This document shows, piece after piece, positions 1,239 to 8,430 of a stretch of 8,430 bases of DNA. The DNA comes from a virus. Taxonomy: Duplodnaviria > Heunggongvirae > Uroviricota > Caudoviricetes. The stretch's first letter is position 1; every line of letters begins with the position of its first letter. The DNA lies in IMG/VR virus record IMGVR_UViG_2684622619_000023. One strand, given 5' to 3'. Below the pieces are notes generated by a model. The model had not been told where the DNA came from. It made no database searches and worked only from the letters and a program-made list of their open reading frames with translations. The translations under genes were made by a program, and so were the position numbers.

Positions 1239-1616
1239 TTACGCAGGTAGGTAAAGATATGATTGTGGTGGCTTAATATTACTACCTAGAGCAGAGATAG
1301 GAATTGGTTCTTTATATCTTTCCACTTCACCAATTTTTATTGCGTAGGCCTTTTCTCTACCTGAATAATATGAGTCATAAAATTGCTTAGAAATACCTGC
1401 GTGTTTTTCCGTCTTTTTCCAAAGAGATTCCGGTTCGTCACTTAGTATTGATTCAATACGGAATTGACCAACAACTTTACCTAATGGCATCGTGGCATAA
1501 ATAACAACGGTGCTAATTTGCGGATTTTTGAATATACCTTTACGAAACTCGAACCGCTTTGTTCCGTTCAATATTTTTTCTGCAAACTCAGGCTTAATGG
1601 ATAATAAAACTTTCAT
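1239..1616 (-). CDS. ASCH-domain (PUA-like fold) protein, 125 aa; second gene of the AT-rich cassette
   Basis: N-terminus MKVLLSIKPEFAEKILNGTKRFEFRKG carries the ASCH GxKxxExR signature (G-T-K-R-F-E-F-R). Size and pattern are typical of standalone ASCH proteins. Overlaps the upstream gene by 23 nt (translational coupling). AT-rich compared with the flanking phage genes. Confidence 0.8.
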   Translation of the reverse strand: MKVLLSIKPEFAEKILNGTKRFEFRKGIFKNPQISTVVIYATMPLGKVVGQFRIESILSDEPESLWKKTEKHAGISKQFYDSYYSGREKAYAIKIGEVERYKEPIPISALGSNIKPPQSYLYLPA

Positions 1617-2667
1617 TTATCTTGCCTAACTCGATGATCTTTAAGAACTGCTCATTTGTGAGTTTAAAGTGACTCCATCGGAATGCACGCGAACCATTTA
1701 GCCCCACATGATCTATTAAAATAGCACGATTGGGTCTCTTTGGCAAAGACAGATTGTATGTGAATCTTATAATGAAAGGGTATCGACGTTCTTTATAGAT
1801 TTTTCTGAGTTCATCTTCAGAAAATACGCTAAAACGAATACAATAGTCTACAAAACTATCTTCGCTTAAAAATTCAGAAATATTTTTTACGCTCTCAACT
1901 ACACATAATGTACTGGCTACAGAACGATAGCGAGCTGGCCCTTTTTTGTCTCCGGTTCTATAGATGACAATGATATCTCCTCTTTTCATTCCCATCACAG
2001 AACGCATTCCACATATGTAAATTTTATGAATGCTGTTAGCATGGGATATATCTTTGACAATATCTGGTGATTCATTTACAAGTTTTGAATCAGGGAATAG
2101 TCTAGTGTGATATTCGGGATAAATCGCCAGTAAATATTTGTTGGCTCTTGATGTCATTATTCGAGGGTAATCTAATAAAATATCACCATAAGGCTCATGC
2201 AAAGACCTCGCATATACAAACTCTTTCCCGTTATGTGTTTCTTTTTCACCATGAATGTAAAATCCGTACGTTTGGAAAAGTTTTATTAGATGGACGTGTT
2301 TGTCGAAAACAGTAACATAAATATCATCAGATTTTGATGAAAATGCATGGTCAAACGCTTTTTTTAGAAATCGTTGTCCGCGAAGGGTGCCTTTAGATTC
2401 AAATTTGAATGTTCCTATCTTTAGATGACGTCCTGGTGGGAGCGCTGGATTAATGTCATTTGCATCATCATTTTCTTTTAGATACATAAAACCTTCGATT
2501 TTATGCTTGTCATCATAGAGCACATAAGCTGATTCTCCTTCTCTGGCTTTTTTTTCTAACCAAAGAGGAAACTCTTTATAATCTTTTTTTAAAGAGTCAA
2601 AAAATGGGTCATTGTGATCAAAATCAGAGAATTTCTCATATTTTAAAGTATCCATTAAGTTCTCCAT
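1594..2667 (-). CDS. Hypothetical two-domain protein, 357 aa: N-terminal GNAT-like acyltransferase-like region, C-terminal PUA-like (EVE/ASCH-type) beta-barrel-like region; first gene of the AT-rich cassette
   Basis: Long AT-rich ORF. N-terminal half has GNAT-like strand/helix patterns (AYVLYDDKHKIEGFMYLK; HLKIGTFKF; GTLRGQRFLKKAFDHA; DDIYVTVFDKHVHLIKLFQTYGFYIHGE). C-terminal half (IYICGMRSVMGMKRGDIIVIYRTGD...YRSVASTLCVVESV) resembles PUA-like barrels. The ATG at 2667-2665 has no good SD; the in-frame ATG at 2655-2653 is preceded by GGAG at 6-nt spacing, so the true start may be 2655 (353 aa). Domain calls are by eye and tentative. Confidence 0.8.
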   Translation of the reverse strand: MENLMDTLKYEKFSDFDHNDPFFDSLKKDYKEFPLWLEKKAREGESAYVLYDDKHKIEGFMYLKENDDANDINPALPPGRHLKIGTFKFESKGTLRGQRFLKKAFDHAFSSKSDDIYVTVFDKHVHLIKLFQTYGFYIHGEKETHNGKEFVYARSLHEPYGDILLDYPRIMTSRANKYLLAIYPEYHTRLFPDSKLVNESPDIVKDISHANSIHKIYICGMRSVMGMKRGDIIVIYRTGDKKGPARYRSVASTLCVVESVKNISEFLSEDSFVDYCIRFSVFSEDELRKIYKERRYPFIIRFTYNLSLPKRPNRAILIDHVGLNGSRAFRWSHFKLTNEQFLKIIELGKINESFIIH

Positions 2668-4455: not shown

Positions 4456-5320
4456 ATGGCAAACACTGCTGAGATATTCAATTTTCCAGTGCCGGATGTG
4501 GCACAAAAGGAGCCGCGCGTGGCAGATCTCGATGATGGTTATACGCGCATTGCAAATGAGTTGCTGGAAGCTGTGATGCTGGCCGGATTAACACAGCACC
4601 AGCTTCTGGTCTTCCTGGCTGTCATGCGCAAAACATATGGCTTTAATAAAAAACTGGATTGGGTGAGCAACGAGCAACTTTCCGAATTGACCGGGATATT
4701 GCCGCACAAGTGTTCTGCTGCAAAAAGCGTTCTGGTAAAGCGTGGGATTCTTATTCAGAGCGGGCGGAATACCGGCATTAATAATGTGGTCAGTGAATGG
4801 TCAACATTACCCGAATCAGGTAAGAAAAATAAAGTTTACCTGAAAGAGGTAAATTTACCTGAATCAGGTAAAAAAAGTTTACCCAAATCAGGTAAAGACG
4901 TTTACCCGAATCAGGTAAACACAAAAGACAAAATAACAAAAGACAATATAAAACCTTATTCGTCCGAGAATTCTGGCGAATCCTCTGACCAGCCAGAAAA
5001 CGACCTTCCTGTGGTGAAACCGGATGCTGCGATTCAGAGCGGCAGCAAGTGGGGGACAGCAGAAGACCTGACCGCCGCAGAGTGGATGTTTGANNNNNNN
5101 NNNNNNNNNNNNNNNNNNNNNNNNNNNNNNNNNNNNNNNNNNNTTCCGCTGGGCATGCCAGGACAACTTCTGGTCCGGTAACGTGCTAAGTCCGGCCAAA
5201 CTCCGTGACAAGTGGACCCAACTCGAAATCAACCGTAACAAGCAACAGGCTGGAGTGACAGCCGGAAAATCAAAACTGGACCTGACAAACACTGACTGGA
5301 TTTATGGGGTGGATTTATGA
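4456..5320 (+). CDS. O: Replication initiator protein O (lambda O-like); reading frame interrupted by a 50-nt run of N (5094-5143)
   Basis: ATG at 4456 with GGGAGG 5 nt upstream; N-terminus MANTAEIFNFPVPDVAQKEPRVADLDDGYTRIANELLEA parallels lambda O MTNTAKILNF...VADLDDGYARLSN. After the gap, the frame ending at 5320 gives ...FWSGNVLSPAKLRDKWTQLEINRNKQQAGVTAGKSKLDLTNTDWIYGVDL, matching the lambda O C-terminus. The in-frame ATG at 4366 is an alternative but less likely start. Confidence 0.88.
4807..4956. repeat. Origin of replication (ori-lambda-like) inside the O gene: five 17-bp iterons plus an AT-rich region
   Basis: Iterons TTACC(C/T)(G/A)AA(T/A)(C/G)AGGTAA at 4807-4823, 4836-4852 (degenerate), 4855-4871, 4879-4895 and 4902-4918, each with inverted ends TTACC/GGTAA. 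Followed by the A-rich stretch ACAAAAGACAAAATAACAAAAGACAATATAAAA (4920-4956). Same organisation as lambda ori within the O linker. Confidence 0.8.
5094..5143. other. Run of 50 N (assembly gap or masked bases) inside gene O
   Basis: Directly visible. The O reading frames before and after the run differ by one position, so 50 is not the true missing length. Confidence 0.99.
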
Positions 5321-6018
5321 AAAACATCGCCGCACAAATGGTTAACTTTGACTGTGAGCAGATGCGCCGGATCGCCAACAACATGCCGGAACAGTACGAC
5401 GAAAAGCCACAGGTACAGCAGGTAGCGCAGATCATCAACGGTGTGTTCAGGCAGTTACTGGCAACTTTCCCGGCGAGCCTGGCTAACCGTGACCAGAATG
5501 AACTGAACGAAATCCGCCGCCAGTGGGTTCTGGCTTTCCGGGAAAACGGGATCACCACAATGGAACAGGTTAACGCAGGAATGCGCGTAGCCCGTCGGCA
5601 GAATCGACCATTTCTGCCATCACCCGGGCAGTTTGTTGCATGGTGCCGGGAAGAAGCATCCGTTATCGCCGGACTGCCAAACGTCAGCGAGCTGGTTGAT
5701 ATGGTTTACGAGTATTGCCGGAAGCGTGGCCTGTATCCGGATGCAGAGTCTTATCCGTGGAAATCGAACGCGCATTACTGGTTGGTTACCAACTTGTACC
5801 AGAACATGCGGGCCAATGCGCTGACTGACGCGGAATTACGGCGCAAGGCTGCCGATGAACTGACCTGTATGACAGCGCGAATTAACCGTGGTGAGACGAT
5901 ACCTGAACCAGTAAAACAACTTCCTGTTATGGGCGGTAGACCTCTAAATCGTGCACAGGCTCTGGCGAAGATCGCAGAAATTAAAGCTAAGTTCGGACTG
6001 AAAGGAGCAAGTGTATGA
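5317..6018 (+). CDS. P: Replication protein P (DnaB helicase loader), lambda P-like
   Basis: 233-aa ORF MKNIAAQMVNFDCEQMRRIANNMPEQYDEKPQVQQVAQIING...KFGLKGASV, near-identical to my recollection of lambda P. ATG overlaps the O stop (ATGA at 5317-5320). Confidence 0.95.
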   Translation: MKNIAAQMVNFDCEQMRRIANNMPEQYDEKPQVQQVAQIINGVFRQLLATFPASLANRDQNELNEIRRQWVLAFRENGITTMEQVNAGMRVARRQNRPFLPSPGQFVAWCREEASVIAGLPNVSELVDMVYEYCRKRGLYPDAESYPWKSNAHYWLVTNLYQNMRANALTDAELRRKAADELTCMTARINRGETIPEPVKQLPVMGGRPLNRAQALAKIAEIKAKFGLKGASV

Positions 6019-6317
6019 CGGGCAAAGAGGCAATTATTCATTACCTGGGGACGCATAAGAGCTTCTGTGCACAGGACGTTGCCGCGGTAACAGGCGCAAC
6101 CGTAACCAGCATAAATCAGGCTGCGGCTAAAATGGCGCGGGCAGGAATCCTGGTCGTTGATGGTAAGGTCTGGCGAACGGTGTATTACCGGTTCGCTACC
6201 AGAGAAGAACGGGAAGGAAAGGTGAGCACGAATCTGATTTTTAAGGAGTGTCGCCAGAGTGCCGCGATGAAACGGGTATTGAGGGTATATAAAAGAACAT
6301 CAATGGGTACACAATGA
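6015..6317 (+). CDS. ren: Ren protein (lambda ren-like), divergent C-terminus
   Basis: 100-aa ORF MTGKEAIIHYLGTHKSFCAQDVAAVTGATVTSINQAAAKMARAGILVVDGKVWRTVYYRFATREEREGK... matches recalled lambda Ren. ATG overlaps the P stop (ATGA at 6015-6018). Confidence 0.9.
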   Translation: MTGKEAIIHYLGTHKSFCAQDVAAVTGATVTSINQAAAKMARAGILVVDGKVWRTVYYRFATREEREGKVSTNLIFKECRQSAAMKRVLRVYKRTSMGTQ

Positions 6318-6334
6318 TGAAACAGGTGAGTTGA

Positions 6335-6369
6335 GTTCAAACTGTAGTACAATTCTCTCCAGTTTGAAC
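6335..6369. repeat. Perfect 10-bp inverted repeat GTTCAAACTG (15-nt spacer) CAGTTTGAAC between ren and emrE
   Basis: Arms at 6335-6344 and 6360-6369 are exact reverse complements. Ends 1 nt before the emrE RBS (AGGAAAG, 6370-6376). Confidence 0.6.
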
Positions 6370-6384
6370 AGGAAAGAATATGTT

Positions 6385-6717
6385 ATGAACCCTTATATTT
6401 ATCTTGGTGGTGCAATACTTGCAGAGGTCATTGGTACAACCTTAATGAAGTTTTCAGAAGGTTTTACACGGTTATGGCCATCTGTTGGTACAATTATTTG
6501 TTATTGTGCATCATTCTGGTTATTAGCTCAGACGCTGGCTTATATTCCTACAGGGATTGCTTATGCTATCTGGTCAGGAGTCGGTATTGTCCTGATTAGC
6601 TTACTATCATGGGGGTTTTTCGGCCAACGGCTGGACCTGCCAGCCGTTATAGGCATGATGTTGATTTGTGCCGGTGTGTTGGTTATTAATTTATTGTCAC
6701 GAAGCACACCACATTAA
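6385..6717 (+). CDS. emrE: EmrE, small multidrug resistance (SMR) family efflux transporter, 110 aa
   Basis: From the ATG at 6385 (RBS AGGAAAG 6370-6376): MNPYIYLGGAILAEVIGTTLMKFSEGFTRLWPSVGTIICYCASFWLLAQTLAYIPTGIAYAIWSGVGIVLISLLSWGFFGQRLDLPAVIGMMLICAGVLVINLLSRSTPH, essentially the E. coli EmrE sequence as I recall it; four hydrophobic helices. The 18-codon upstream extension in the track (from 6331) is rejected. Confidence 0.95.
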   Translation: MNPYIYLGGAILAEVIGTTLMKFSEGFTRLWPSVGTIICYCASFWLLAQTLAYIPTGIAYAIWSGVGIVLISLLSWGFFGQRLDLPAVIGMMLICAGVLVINLLSRSTPH

Positions 6718-6747
6718 AAATAATTTCTTTTAAAAGACTGCAATATG

Positions 6748-6780
6748 GCGGTTCATATCTTTACATGGGCCGCTTTTGTT
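6748..6780 (+). terminator. Candidate intrinsic terminator downstream of emrE
   Basis: Stem GCGGTTCAT (6748-6756) / ATGGGCCGC (6765-6773), 9 bp including two G-U pairs, 8-nt loop, followed by TTTTGTT (6774-6780). Confidence 0.45.
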
Positions 6781-6961
6781 AATGTTTTTAGTTTTTGTGT
6801 ATTCTTTTGTGCCTTCAAGATTATTGCGTAAGCAAATTGCAATACGATTATTGTTGTATATTCAAGATAGTGTGATCGTAATTGTCTTTTTAAATAAAAA
6901 TTAAACAAAAATTATATCTCACCACTAAGGTTTATAAAAGCATAAGTTAGCAGGTGTCACC

Positions 6962-8430
6962 ATGAAAAAAGCCATAGCATATATGCGATTTTCATCACCA
7001 GGTCAGATGTCTGGCGACTCATTAAACCGACAGAGAAGACTTATTGCTGAATGGTTAAAGGTAAATAGTGATTATTATCTTGATACCATAACATATGAAG
7101 ATTTAGGATTAAGTGCATTCAAAGGAAAGCATGCACAATCAGGAGCTTTTTCGGAATTTTTAGATGCTATAGAGCATGGTTATATATTGCCAGGAACTAC
7201 ATTGTTAGTTGAAAGTCTGGACAGACTTTCAAGAGAAAAAGTCGGTGAAGCGATTGAACGTCTGAAATTGATTTTGAATCACGGTATTGATGTTATAACT
7301 CTTTGCGACAATACAGTCTATAATATTGACTCTTTGAATGAGCCATATTCATTAATAAAAGCCATACTTATAGCACAAAGGGCAAATGAAGAAAGCGAGA
7401 TAAAGTCAAGTCGGGTTAAATTATCATGGAAGAAAAAACGGCAGGATGCACTGGAATCAGGTACGATTATGACGGCGTCTTGTCCGAGATGGCTCTCCTT
7501 AGATGACAAAAGAACGGCTTTTGTTCCAGACCCCGACAGGGTGAAAACTATTGAGCTAATTTTTAAACTCAGGATGGAAAGGCGCTCATTGAATGCAATA
7601 GCCAAGTATTTAAATGATCATGCTGTAAAGAATTTCTCAGGAAAAGAAAGTGCATGGGGACCTTCTGTAATTGAAAAATTATTAGCGAATAAAGCTCTGA
7701 TAGGTATATGCGTACCTTCATATCGTGCAAGAGGGAAAGGGATAAGTGAAATCGCTGGCTATTATCCCAGAGTCATATCAGATGATTTGTTTTACGCTGT
7801 ACAGGAAATTCGGTTGGCACCTTTTGGTATTAGCAATAGTAGCAAGAATCCTATGCTAATAAATCTACTTCGAACAGTTATGAAGTGTGAGGCTTGTGGT
7901 AATACCATGATTGTTCATGCGGTATCTGGAAGTTTGCATGGCTATTATGTTTGTCCGATGAGAAGATTACATCGATGTGACAGGCCATCAATAAAGAGAG
8001 ATTTGGTTGATTATAATATCATTAATGAATTGCTTTTTAATTGTAGCAAAATTCAACCAGTTGAAAACAAGAAAGATGCTAATGAAACTTTAGAGTTAAA
8101 AATTATTGAGCTTCAGATGAAAATTAATAATTTAATCGTTGCATTGTCTGTCGCGCCTGAAGTTACCGCTATAGCAGAGAAAATAAGACTATTAGATAAG
8201 GAATTACGAAGGGCTTCGGTATCATTGAAAACTTTGAAGAGTAAAGGTGTAAATTCATTCAGTGATTTTTATGCTATTGACTTAACCAGTAAAAATGGAC
8301 GAGAGTTATGCCGTACACTTGCCTATAAAACATTCGAAAAAATCATAATTAATACGGATAATAAAACCTGTGATATCTATTTTATGAATGGCATTGTTTT
8401 TAAACACTATCCTTTAATGAAAGTAATATC
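6962..8430 (+). CDS. ybcK: Large serine recombinase (resolvase/invertase-type N-domain + recombinase domain + Cys-rich zinc-ribbon-like region), DLP12 ybcK-like; 3' end beyond the window
   Basis: ATG at 6962 with AGGTG 5 nt upstream. Frame is open for 489 codons to the window edge (my own translation; not in the track because no stop is reached). N-terminus MKKAIAYMRFSSPGQMSGDSLNRQRRLIAEW has the serine-recombinase catalytic motif; later CEACGNTMIVHAVSGSLHGYYVCPMRRLHRC is zinc-ribbon-like. AT-rich. The ren-emrE-recombinase order matches what I recall of E. coli DLP12. Confidence 0.88.
   Translation, partial: MKKAIAYMRFSSPGQMSGDSLNRQRRLIAEWLKVNSDYYLDTITYEDLGLSAFKGKHAQSGAFSEFLDAIEHGYILPGTTLLVESLDRLSREKVGEAIERLKLILNHGIDVITLCDNTVYNIDSLNEPYSLIKAILIAQRANEESEIKSSRVKLSWKKKRQDALESGTIMTASCPRWLSLDDKRTAFVPDPDRVKTIELIFKLRMERRSLNAIAKYLNDHAVKNFSGKESAWGPSVIEKLLANKALIGICVPSYRARGKGISEIAGYYPRVISDDLFYAVQEIRLAPFGISNSSKNPMLINLLRTVMKCEACGNTMIVHAVSGSLHGYYVCPMRRLHRCDRPSIKRDLVDYNIINELLFNCSKIQPVENKKDANETLELKIIELQMKINNLIVALSVAPEVTAIAEKIRLLDKELRRASVSLKTLKSKGVNSFSDFYAIDLTSKNGRELCRTLAYKTFEKIIINTDNKTCDIYFMNGIVFKHYPLMKVI

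Follow-up and report, generated by a model that had tools for sequence, protein, structure and literature searches.

An intact large serine recombinase gene, ybcK, within an accessory slot of lambdoid Escherichia coli prophages

Introduction

What is a large serine recombinase gene doing in the interior of a lambdoid phage that has a tyrosine integrase of its own? The question is raised by the right end of the window analyzed here, an 8,430-nt stretch of Caudoviricetes DNA from IMG/VR, for which a sequence-only reading had proposed a nested mobile element, a DNA inversion switch or a second integration system. The gene is ybcK, a large serine recombinase gene of the serine-integrase family carried by DLP12-type lambdoid prophages; it has been annotated before, and its function is uncharacterised. 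In this work we establish that ybcK is an intact enzyme gene under selection, and no relic, and that its DNA is foreign and AT-rich. Our preferred reading, on which our confidence is evenly balanced, is that a small integrase cassette, inserted into the phage by a serine recombinase, gave rise to the insert holding ybcK, which may still be such a cassette.

Results

Integrity and distribution of ybcK

From its ATG at position 6962, the frame runs for 489 codons to the end of the window without a stop (Table 1). In complete genomes the gene is 1,527 nt long and encodes 508 amino acids, so the window is short of the last 19 codons only, and the 3′ cut is the window end, with no mutation responsible; the truncation or frameshift beyond the window that had been put forward as grounds for refutation is absent. 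Matches obtained with tblastn span all 508 residues in 80/80 IMG/VR loci. Alleles compared at dS 0.13-0.15 give a dN/dS of 0.06-0.09, an estimate new in the present analysis that indicates strong purifying selection on ybcK.

Table 1 Features of the window in the ren-ybcK region, with the evidence for each
Feature	Position	Strand	Evidence
ren gene	6015..6317	+	PHROG Ren-like exclusion protein, E 6e-42
emrE unit (emrE CDS 6385-6717)	6308..6725	+	Pfam Multi_Drug_Res, E 2e-35
Left end of the 2,085-bp insert (ybcK leader)	6726..6961	+	Homology to empty islands stops at 6724/6725
ybcK CDS, codons 1-489 of 508	6962..8430	+	Translation; PHROG 95 integrase, E 1e-119
Resolvase-type catalytic domain (residues 4-161), including long helix E	6971..7444	+	Pfam PF00239, E 5e-19
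Recombinase domain (residues 191-284)	7532..7813	+	Pfam PF07508, E 2e-14
Zinc ribbon (302-357), then coiled-coil hairpin (369-429)	7865..8248	+	PF13408 Zn_ribbon_recom, E 7e-8; model helices

The arrangement ren-emrE-ybcK is found in 1,399 of 5,426 complete E. coli genomes, and ybcK is also present in 12 deposited lambdoid phage genomes; that of phage 4A7, the one whose complete annotation was examined, has a tyrosine integrase and an excisionase besides ybcK. The gene order ren-emrE-leader-ybcK, in one orientation, is common to all 80 IMG/VR loci and to every genome locus examined. The IMG/VR scan, which returned E. coli copies only (97-100% identity), served as an orientation survey and gave no new contexts. 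The comparison with DLP12 suggested by the sequence-only reading shows that K-12 has the same gene, annotated there as a recombinase family protein, in the same ren-emrE-ylcJ-ybcK order. K-12 MG1655 is 98.1% identical to window positions 6200-8430, and between ybcK of a DLP12-like locus (L004) and the window allele there are 2 differences in 1,467 nt. DLP12 is degraded, whereas the lambdoid prophage around the window copy is fuller, having a repressor, cro, O and P.

Disrupted copies also occur: IS1203 interrupts ybcK in some O157:H7 strains, and the gene is partly deleted in O104:H4 and in one other strain. Such lesions, together with the silence of ybcK in K-12, are what would be expected if ybcK were the remains of a former integrase, in decay and without present function. 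The low dN/dS, the full-length matches in every IMG/VR locus and the retention of ybcK in deposited phage genomes argue against decay, which we consider very unlikely.

The YbcK protein

The predicted protein has the architecture of an integrase. Its AlphaFold model (mean pLDDT 81) displays the catalytic domain, helix E (residues 128-166), the recombinase domain, the zinc ribbon and the coiled coil, the last as a predicted hairpin of residues 369-395 and 401-429, followed by an additional C-terminal module of helix and beta-sheet (residues 444-507). The nucleophile Ser11 is encoded at 6992-6994, and R9, S11, D87, R88 and R91 do not vary among 31 homologs, whose identity goes down to 27%. The zinc-ribbon cysteines C309, C312, C331 and C339 are invariant in an alignment of 20 sequences and reach at least 90% conservation in that of 31. 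This conservation of the catalytic residues and of all integrase DNA-binding domains makes DNA recombination probably the selected activity. No integration, excision or other recombinase activity of YbcK is reported in the literature searched.

The same domain order and the same catalytic Ser/Arg/Asp set are found in the Listeria A118/LI integrase, Bxb1, PhiC31 and TP901-1. A phmmer search of PDB sequences returned no match, and a fold search was required: full-length Foldseek matches comprise 9dxd, 9dxh, 9tep (PhiC31), 9iu2 (Bxb1) and 4kis (E 2e-19 to 8e-8). Similarity to phage serine integrases is structural over the full length (E 2e-19 to 5e-14), at a sequence identity of only 15-19%. YbcK departs from these integrases in its C-terminal module, in its non-terminal location within the prophage and in sharing its phage with a tyrosine integrase. 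The sole NCBIfam match is XisF (NF041201), at 47.1 bits against a curated equivalog cut-off of 375, and orthology to XisF was rejected on that score. XisF, SpoIVCA and SprA belong to the same large serine recombinase family, but no interrupted host gene is restored at ybcK.

The proposed inversion switch, in which YbcK would flip a neighboring segment in the manner of Hin, Gin and Pin, draws on its membership of the serine recombinase superfamily and on a weak PHROG match to DNA invertases that is confined to the catalytic domain. DNA invertases of the Hin/Gin/Cin/Pin type are proteins of about 190 amino acids with a C-terminal helix-turn-helix, acting on a segment between short inverted repeats. 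YbcK, in contrast, is a 508-residue protein with an integrase-type C-terminus comprising recombinase domain, zinc ribbon and coiled coil. The search for inverted repeats enclosing a segment found none, the orientation is single in 80/80 contigs, and inverted isoforms are absent from the 80 IMG/VR loci and the fetched genome regions; excised forms were not found either. We therefore regard the inversion switch as scarcely credible.

An AT-rich accessory slot

Base composition sets ybcK apart from its surroundings: GC content is 0.501 in O-P-ren, 0.395 in the emrE unit, 0.354 in ybcK and 0.291 in the leader (6718-6961). The leader, put at 240 nt by the sequence-only reading, measures 244 nt, and the other features read from the letters hold as well: the large serine recombinase frame of 489 or more codons carries the full domain set, the YMRFSSPGQ motif corresponds to residues 7-15 and includes Ser11, the Cys-rich segment is a zinc ribbon with four cysteines, and the segment is markedly AT-rich (35% GC in ybcK against 50% in O-P-ren). 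Also sustained was the internal, nin-region position in a lambda-like phage with a separate tyrosine integrase. ybcK lies between ren and ybcN, a ninB homolog, and the matching prophage has its tyrosine integrase and excisionase at its mlrA end.

This position is a hypervariable slot between ren and ybcN, filled by an AT-rich accessory island that consists of emrE followed by variable cargo. The last 27 nt of ren (from 6291) differ from the ren of island-less phages, and homology is lost at query position 591 (window position 6290) in 140 of the 152 phage records that carry this ren, which places the left edge of the island inside the 3′ end of ren. The right edge is a conserved promoter-like and hairpin element that is also present in phages without ybcK; the slot edges are common to phages with and without the gene. 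Other cargo in the same slot includes PD-lambda-1 with Rha, and an acyltransferase with a lipoprotein; SIR2 lies nearby in L099. Variation from phage to phage in the DNA 3′ of ybcK, a finding new in the present analysis, includes a truncated antirepressor gene in the more common E. coli variant. The emrE unit contains an inverted repeat (6335-6347/6357-6369).

The window itself has 50 N at 5094-5143, where identity to the reference prophage shifts from 100% to 98.7%. The left and right halves of the window may therefore have been brought together by a scaffold join or by collapse of a repeat; ren-emrE-ybcK itself is unaffected.

The leader contains a terminator-like hairpin (6747-6774) with a T-run and the annotated small ORF ylcJ (6776-6904), whose short, hydrophobic product, considered as a candidate recombination directionality factor, has no family match. 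It corresponds to the published Rho-dependent terminator t_ybcK, at which Rho/NusG-dependent termination takes place upstream of ybcK (PMC4150792). The terminator, together with polyphosphate-dependent binding of Hfq to ybcK DNA (PMC10954037), is evidence for silencing of the gene. An Rfam scan of the window returned no RNA family.

The 2,085-bp insert

The emrE unit is about 91.6% identical to a chromosomal fliE-yedK island that has emrE-ybcL-ybcM and no ybcK. Relative to these emrE-ybcL islands, ybcK and its leader form a clean 2,085-bp indel, first described here, at which the fliE-yedK islands have 5 nt. Homology to the empty islands ends at window position 6724/6725 and restarts at position 28875 of L002, the junction being read against islands of 91% identity and thus uncertain by about 4 nt. 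The loci L101 and L102 align to the window at 6308-6724/6725 only. In order, the insert comprises the Rho-terminated leader with ylcJ, ybcK and some 300 bp of additional sequence.

The proposal of a nested mobile element is partly supported, by this clean indel and by the roughly 3-kb relatives with partial gene duplicates described below, but not by the insert ends or by its distribution. The ends have no dyad or inverted symmetry, target duplication, terminal repeats or common core beyond a T-run, and a repeat search of the whole ren-to-ybcN region gave short chance-level matches only. Within E. coli, the left context of ybcK is always the same, and neither recent movement nor a second context is apparent. 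No closely related empty site was found in the species: a chimeric ren+ybcN query of the 5,426 genomes recovered no clean empty site, its matches being deletions or other cargo. In four loci, the DNA 3′ of ybcK lacks the displaced ren 3′ end and ninA, which would be the expected right attB half.

The sites that serine integrases recombine are about 40-50 bp long, with partial dyad symmetry around a central dinucleotide. DLP12-type loci have one candidate of this size, a perfect inverted repeat with arms of 13 nt and a 24-nt spacer (50 bp in total) located 200 nt 3′ of ybcK (L002 28764-28813), whose TGTCACG core recurs at the emrE 3′ end. This palindrome is missing from the commoner variant, with the truncated antirepressor downstream, and a search for att-like palindromes beside nine homologs and the two E. 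coli variants found nothing recurrent. No cognate attachment sites were identified in the flanks, nor was a recombination directionality factor for YbcK.

The palindrome bears on the proposed second integration system, in which YbcK would use an attP near ybcK to direct the whole phage into an alternative bacterial site when that of the tyrosine integrase is unavailable. The terminal position of homologs in other genera (below) counts for the proposal and the E. coli loci count against it: none of those examined, which comprise the 80 IMG/VR loci, the fetched genome regions with annotation and an even sample of 60 genome matches, joins ybcK or the palindrome to host DNA, and ybcK is internal to the prophage in every one. 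Insertion at ybcK would, moreover, split the early-right operon. With the palindrome missing from the commoner variant and nothing comparable near homologs, we regard a second integration system as possible but improbable.

Relatives in other genera

YbcK relatives are of two kinds, a pattern new in the present analysis: they are either prophage-terminal or located in inserts of about 3 kb within lambdoid early genes, flanked by diverged partial gene copies. Prophage ends are where integrases sit, and ssrA is a classic integration target. The close relatives at prophage ends, with 50-59% identity to YbcK, were found in Atlantibacter (beside ssrA/smpB), Ewingella, Erwinia (beside lepA) and apparently Yersinia. 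Relatives nested in lambdoid early regions were found in L099, L006, L020 and Pantoea dispersa. The nested unit of L099 measures 2,980 bp and lies between copies of a 181-nt repeat (86% identical) matching the 5′ part of a DUF1367 gene; that of L020 measures 2,935 bp, and its flanking repeat, of about 440 nt (71-73% identical), matches the P gene. What unrelated contexts have in common in Pantoea is the recombinase gene by itself, along with some 210 nt on its 5′ side and 70 nt on its 3′ side. At the nucleotide level, the E. coli unit and the homolog loci are homologous in the coding region only, so the flanks are not comparable across genera.

These junctions also bear on a plainer account, in which ybcK is an ordinary moron, brought into the ren-ybcN slot by the mosaic exchange, homologous or illegitimate, that is usual between lambdoid phages, and acts in trans away from its own locus, for instance in superinfection exclusion, anti-phage defence or host stress. 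That the slot holds different cargo in other phages, within edges common to phages with and without ybcK, is consistent with such an origin, as are the one fixed context in E. coli and the strong purifying selection even in a cryptic DLP12-type prophage. A role in host stress is in line with the report that over-expression of ybcK raised sabinene tolerance and its knock-out lowered it (PMC7181518). Against this account, no PADLOC defence model matches YbcK (zero family matches at E up to 0.01), the integrase catalytic residues and DNA-binding domains are conserved, and mid-gene junctions (the ren 3′ end, the truncated antirepressor gene, and DUF1367 and P in the relatives) are atypical of gene-boundary mosaicism. 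We judge the moron account rather unlikely, if the most serious competitor. Ordinary lambdoid mosaic recombination, with later selection for intact genes, could also produce every junction observed, which counts against the cassette reading.

Discussion

Arrival of the insert as an integrase cassette, the reading we prefer, has a parallel in TnpX of Tn4451 and TndX of Tn5397, large serine recombinases that move compact elements, with precise presence/absence polymorphisms as the outcome. The 2.1-kb indel in E. coli and the roughly 3-kb inserts of the relatives resemble these elements, but neither conserved end dinucleotides nor a circular form was seen, and the long, diverged partial gene duplicates on either side of the YbcK relatives differ from the classic pattern of such transposons.

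That YbcK is active, when it is expressed and on what DNA it acts are inferences. The cassette would have arrived by serine-recombinase-mediated insertion into a lambdoid phage. In the lysogen, the leader terminator would silence ybcK, as would nucleoid proteins acting on its AT-rich DNA. When the phage infects or is induced, rightward early transcripts, once antiterminated, would extend past O, P, ren and emrE into ybcK, and YbcK would then perform conservative site-specific recombination via Ser11.

A broader proposal, which we advance as speculative and on the whole unlikely, is that the YbcK family consists of small integrative cassettes living in phage genomes. Such cassettes would insert into the early-right region of Enterobacterales lambdoid phages, from replication to nin, bring a replacement for the interrupted gene segment (the DUF1367 gene, P), ride the phage between hosts and create an adjacent site for the exchange of cargo such as ybcL-ybcM, an esterase or antirepressor fragments.

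Present in about a quarter of complete E. coli genomes, including K-12 and O157:H7, ybcK is among the more widespread uncharacterised recombinase genes of the species. If it is only a silent passenger, the present results amount to routine annotation. If YbcK is active, lambdoid and Stx-type prophages would harbor a second site-specific recombination system, which could influence prophage stability and the traffic in accessory genes, emrE and ybcL among them, and might also matter for genome-engineering toolkits. The contrast between terminal and nested relatives across genera, combined with purifying selection on the E. coli gene, offers a concrete and cheap experimental entry point.

YbcK is a divergent, complete large serine recombinase

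The open frame at the right end of the window, taken in the sequence-only reading for a large serine recombinase, proved to be one. The stop-free frame of 489 residues, with the translated N-terminus MKKAIAYMRFSSPGQ, corresponds to ybcK, which the best-matching complete genomes annotate as 'recombinase family protein' (1,527 nt, 508 aa). The gene is thus not truncated beyond the window, and its natural stop lies 19 codons past the window end. YbcK contains three Pfam domains (Resolvase, residues 4-161; Recombinase, 191-284; Zn_ribbon_recom, 302-357) and matches phrog_95 of PHROGs ('integrase', E 1e-119). The only NCBIfam match, XisF, was sub-threshold (47 bits vs a cut-off of 375) and was rejected. 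Catalytic residues R9, S11, D87, R88 and R91 are invariant in 31/31 homologs with identity down to 27%, and Cys 309, 312, 331 and 339 are invariant in a 20-sequence alignment and at least 90% kept in a 31-sequence alignment. The AlphaFold model (mean pLDDT 81) shows the catalytic and recombinase domains as well as the zinc ribbon; residues 128-166 form a long helix E, residues 369-429 a helical hairpin, and the C-terminus bears a small additional module. Foldseek aligned full-length YbcK to solved serine-integrase complexes (E 2e-19 to 8e-8), with PhiC31 and Bxb1 complexes and LI integrase among the matches, and a phmmer search of PDB sequences returned none. Domains, catalytic residues, fold matches and the lack of a PDB sequence match therefore identify YbcK as a divergent yet complete large serine recombinase.

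Genomic setting

The window holds the immunity, replication and left-nin portion of a lambdoid prophage: Gam and Kil homologs, a minus-strand gene pair downstream of the repressor, the S24 repressor, cro, a YdaT-type cII, O, P, ren, emrE, a leader with ylcJ, and ybcK. In strain CEC01302 the same prophage adjoins mlrA, carries a tyrosine integrase and excisionase at the mlrA end, and continues beyond ybcK with ybcL, ybcM, ybcN, ninE, ybcO, rusA, ylcG and Q. The AT-richness ascribed to ybcK and its leader is confirmed, with GC content at 0.35 for ybcK and 0.29 for the leader, against 0.40 for the emrE unit and 0.50 for O-P-ren. The leader has a terminator-like hairpin and corresponds to the untranslated region upstream of ybcK in which a Rho- and NusG-dependent terminator was shown experimentally (PMC4150792). 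Hfq also binds ybcK DNA, in a polyphosphate-dependent manner (PMC10954037). No Rfam family was matched in the window. The overlapping minus-strand ORFs (357 aa, and 125 aa with an ASCH domain; GC 0.35) match PDC-M11, a candidate defence system in PADLOC, with E 2e-133 for part A and 7e-52 for part B. In lambda this position is occupied by rexAB.

A run of 50 N inside O replaces 115 nt of reference. Left of it the window is 100% identical to the mlrA-site prophage L002; right of it identity is 98.7% to L002 and 99.3% to an O157 icd-site prophage. The run probably reflects either a gap in the scaffold or a repeat collapsed between two prophages, and the two halves of the window may not be joined to each other in the source genome.

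Positions of the features discussed, by sequence
Feature	Sequence	Position	Details
ORF pair matching PDC-M11	window	1239-2667	minus strand
N run in O	window	5094-5143	
End of homology in ren	window	6290	
Replaced ren codons	window	6291-6317	
emrE-only match	window	6308-6725	
Inverted repeat between ren and emrE	window	6335-6347 / 6357-6369	13 nt, 92% complementary, 9-nt spacer
TGTCACG at emrE 3' end	window	~6695	
Start of ybcK indel	window	6725/6726	
Terminator-like hairpin	window	6747-6774	
ybcK frame	window	6962-8428	
50-bp palindrome	L002 (mlrA-site prophage)	28764-28813	
Right-edge element	L002	30420 onward	30420-30500 compared with aligned loci
Aligned left of indel	L101 (fliE-yedK island) / L002	5001-5418 / 26373-26789	
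Aligned right of indel	L101 / L002	5424-7154 / 28875-30605	
fliE-yedK island	L101; L102	5001-7154; 4520-6673	
PD-lambda-1 interval	L090 (PhiR26_1)	308-1810	
SIR2-domain interval	L099 (nested relative)	5755-7695	
Direct repeats, DUF1367	L099	9671-9851; 12651-12831	
P gene repeats	L020 (Pantoea alvi)	9239-9681; 12174-12616	
Homolog and 555-aa protein	L190 (Citrobacter koseri)	6145-9530	
Internal ybcK deletions	L104; L088	4327-5299; 3556-3711	

An accessory hot spot between ren and ybcN

Homology ends 27 nt before the ren stop in 140 of the 152 phage records with this ren, so the island replaces the last ren codons. The replacement is found in all emrE-carrying phages, with a ren product of 100 aa vs 96 aa elsewhere, and places the left island edge inside a gene, not between genes. 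The right edge of the slot is a conserved element just upstream of ybcN, consisting in L002 and the aligned loci of a promoter-like sequence, TTTGATTTT...CATAAT, and a GGAG..CTCC hairpin; it precedes a small ORF and ybcN, and is common to 7/7 phages compared, whatever their cargo. Because phages with PD-lambda-1 plus Rha, acyltransferase plus lipoprotein, or small ORFs in the slot share this edge, the ren-ybcN interval is a general accessory hot spot. Other phages carry known or likely defence genes in the ren-to-ninB/ybcN interval: a SIR2-domain protein in L099 and, in PhiR26_1, PD-lambda-1. What follows ybcK differs among loci: ybcL-ybcM in some, in others an opposite-strand esterase gene, a 310-nt remnant, or the C-terminal half (P22AR/Rha) of a truncated antirepressor, to which more small genes may be added.

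Roughly half of the matching records (31/60 evenly spaced rows; 2,265 records with 90-95% identity) match emrE only, at ~91.5% identity; there emrE lies on the chromosome, in an island bounded by fliE and yedK, with ybcL-ybcM directly after it. The alignment of L101, one such island, with L002 defines leader, ybcK and 309 nt downstream as a clean 2,085-bp indel, its junction uncertain by ~4 nt because the two lineages are ~9% diverged. At the ends of the indel no target duplication, terminal inverted repeats or half-site symmetry was seen, and the inverted repeat between ren and emrE lies inside the unit shared with the island. The arrangement emrE-ybcL-ybcM without ybcK occurs in ~2,200-2,300 complete E. 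coli genomes, including CFT073, ST131 and O111:H8. The island is not a prophage. It resembles a worn-down lambdoid fragment and still has the final 10 nt of ren together with the element that precedes ybcN. In CFT073 it also has an ompC/nmpC-like porin gene.

Candidate roles of the recombinase

Of the roles first proposed for the enzyme, a DNA inversion switch is rejected: no inverted repeats were found bounding any segment, gene order and orientation were the same, with no inverted isoforms, in 80/80 IMG/VR loci and all genome regions examined, and the protein is not of the small-invertase type. A second integrase for the whole phage would join ybcK to host DNA, and none of the E. coli loci examined has such a junction; in its favour stands, as a weak lead, a 50-bp palindrome of the size of a serine-integrase attP, which is a candidate YbcK site. 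This perfect 13-nt inverted repeat (AAAATACGTGACA / TGTCACGTATTTT, 24-nt spacer) is found in DLP12-type loci, 200 nt beyond the ybcK stop and ~335 nt past the window end. It is present only in the ybcL-ybcM variant and absent from the commoner antirepressor-type variant; its core, TGTCACG, recurs at the emrE 3' end (3 occurrences vs 0.4 expected), and no counterpart was found near YbcK homologs. The proposal of a nested mobile element is supported insofar as the 2,085-bp indel argues for a discrete ybcK unit, but within E. coli that unit has a single context: neither a second one nor a closely related empty site was found.

Relatives in other genera

YbcK homologs with 40-60% identity occur in Atlantibacter, Yersinia, Erwinia, Ewingella, Pantoea, Kluyvera and Citrobacter, and relatives fall into three kinds of context: prophage ends, nested early-right positions, and plasmids or conjugative elements. 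At prophage ends, the classical integrase position beside host genes, the recombinase follows tail-fibre and tail-fibre-assembly genes and adjoins host genes. Examples are Atlantibacter P0009 (the tmRNA gene's 3' end is 540 nt away, with smpB beyond), Ewingella, Erwinia (adjoining lepA) and Yersinia, where a P2-like prophage lies on one side and a lambda-like tail module that includes an autotransporter gene on the other. Nested relatives occupy the early-right region of lambdoid prophages, oriented with early transcription, between replication genes and NinG/Q in L099 and L006 (59-60% identical), between a ParB-like gene and KilA-N, DUF968 and Q in Pantoea dispersa P0048 (42%), and between two P copies in Pantoea alvi L020. 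In L099 a unit of 2,980 bp comprises the recombinase, KGG and DinI genes; it lies between the two copies (86% identical) of a 181-nt direct repeat that represents the first ~60 codons of a DUF1367 gene, the upstream copy ending ~150 nt before the recombinase start. L020 has a 2,935-bp unit between ~440-nt P gene repeats (71-73% identical), and its common part with two unrelated Pantoea contigs is the recombinase gene only, plus ~210 nt upstream and ~70 nt downstream. Such diverged partial gene duplicates are expected of integrative elements that bring a replacement for the displaced gene part, and could also result from unequal mosaic recombination; no empty sites matching the nested inserts were found. 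A TraD/MobA conjugative element carries the Citrobacter koseri homolog (49% identical), which faces a 555-aa protein head-to-head; the latter gave a faint Shufflon_N match.

Distribution, selection and decay

The ren-emrE-ylcJ-ybcK block, scored as present at >=80% of its length, occurs in 1,399 of 5,426 complete E. coli genomes, including K-12 MG1655 and O157:H7, and in 12 deposited phage genomes, among them 4A7, 4C10, Perceval, Turner and PhiR34_1. For 4A7, the one examined in full, the annotation also lists a tyrosine integrase and excisionase. One circular 'plasmid' of 44.8 kb, from a wild-bird E. coli (L103, NZ_CP172337.1), is a lambdoid phage genome with the same block. Between alleles with dS of 0.13-0.15, ybcK dN/dS is 0.06-0.09, and tblastn matches cover all 508 residues in 80/80 IMG/VR loci. 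Decay is the exception: IS1203 splits ybcK in several O157:H7 lineages (hits H1-H8, H27-H40), and internal deletions have removed parts of it, joining emrE to its 3' half in O104:H4 and, in a bear isolate, leaving its 5' end alone just upstream of ybcN.

Interpretation

It is firmly established that ybcK is a selected, lysogen-silent gene for a complete serine-integrase-type enzyme, in foreign AT-rich DNA within a lambdoid hot spot. Gene order and established lambda biology suggest that it would be expressed via antiterminated early transcription. That the 2.1-kb unit is a present or former self-inserting integrase cassette is our preferred reading, to which we give an even chance. Its main rival, an ordinary moron with a trans-acting role, appears rather unlikely. 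In the literature searched, altered sabinene tolerance on over-expression or knock-out (PMC7181518) was the only ybcK phenotype found, and no report of recombination by YbcK was found.

The feature itself, annotated and named, is already known. As far as the literature was searched, the comparative pattern may be new: some genera have the enzyme as an integrase at the prophage end, others have it in a nested cassette between partial gene duplicates, and the position immediately after the recombinase gene varies in cargo.
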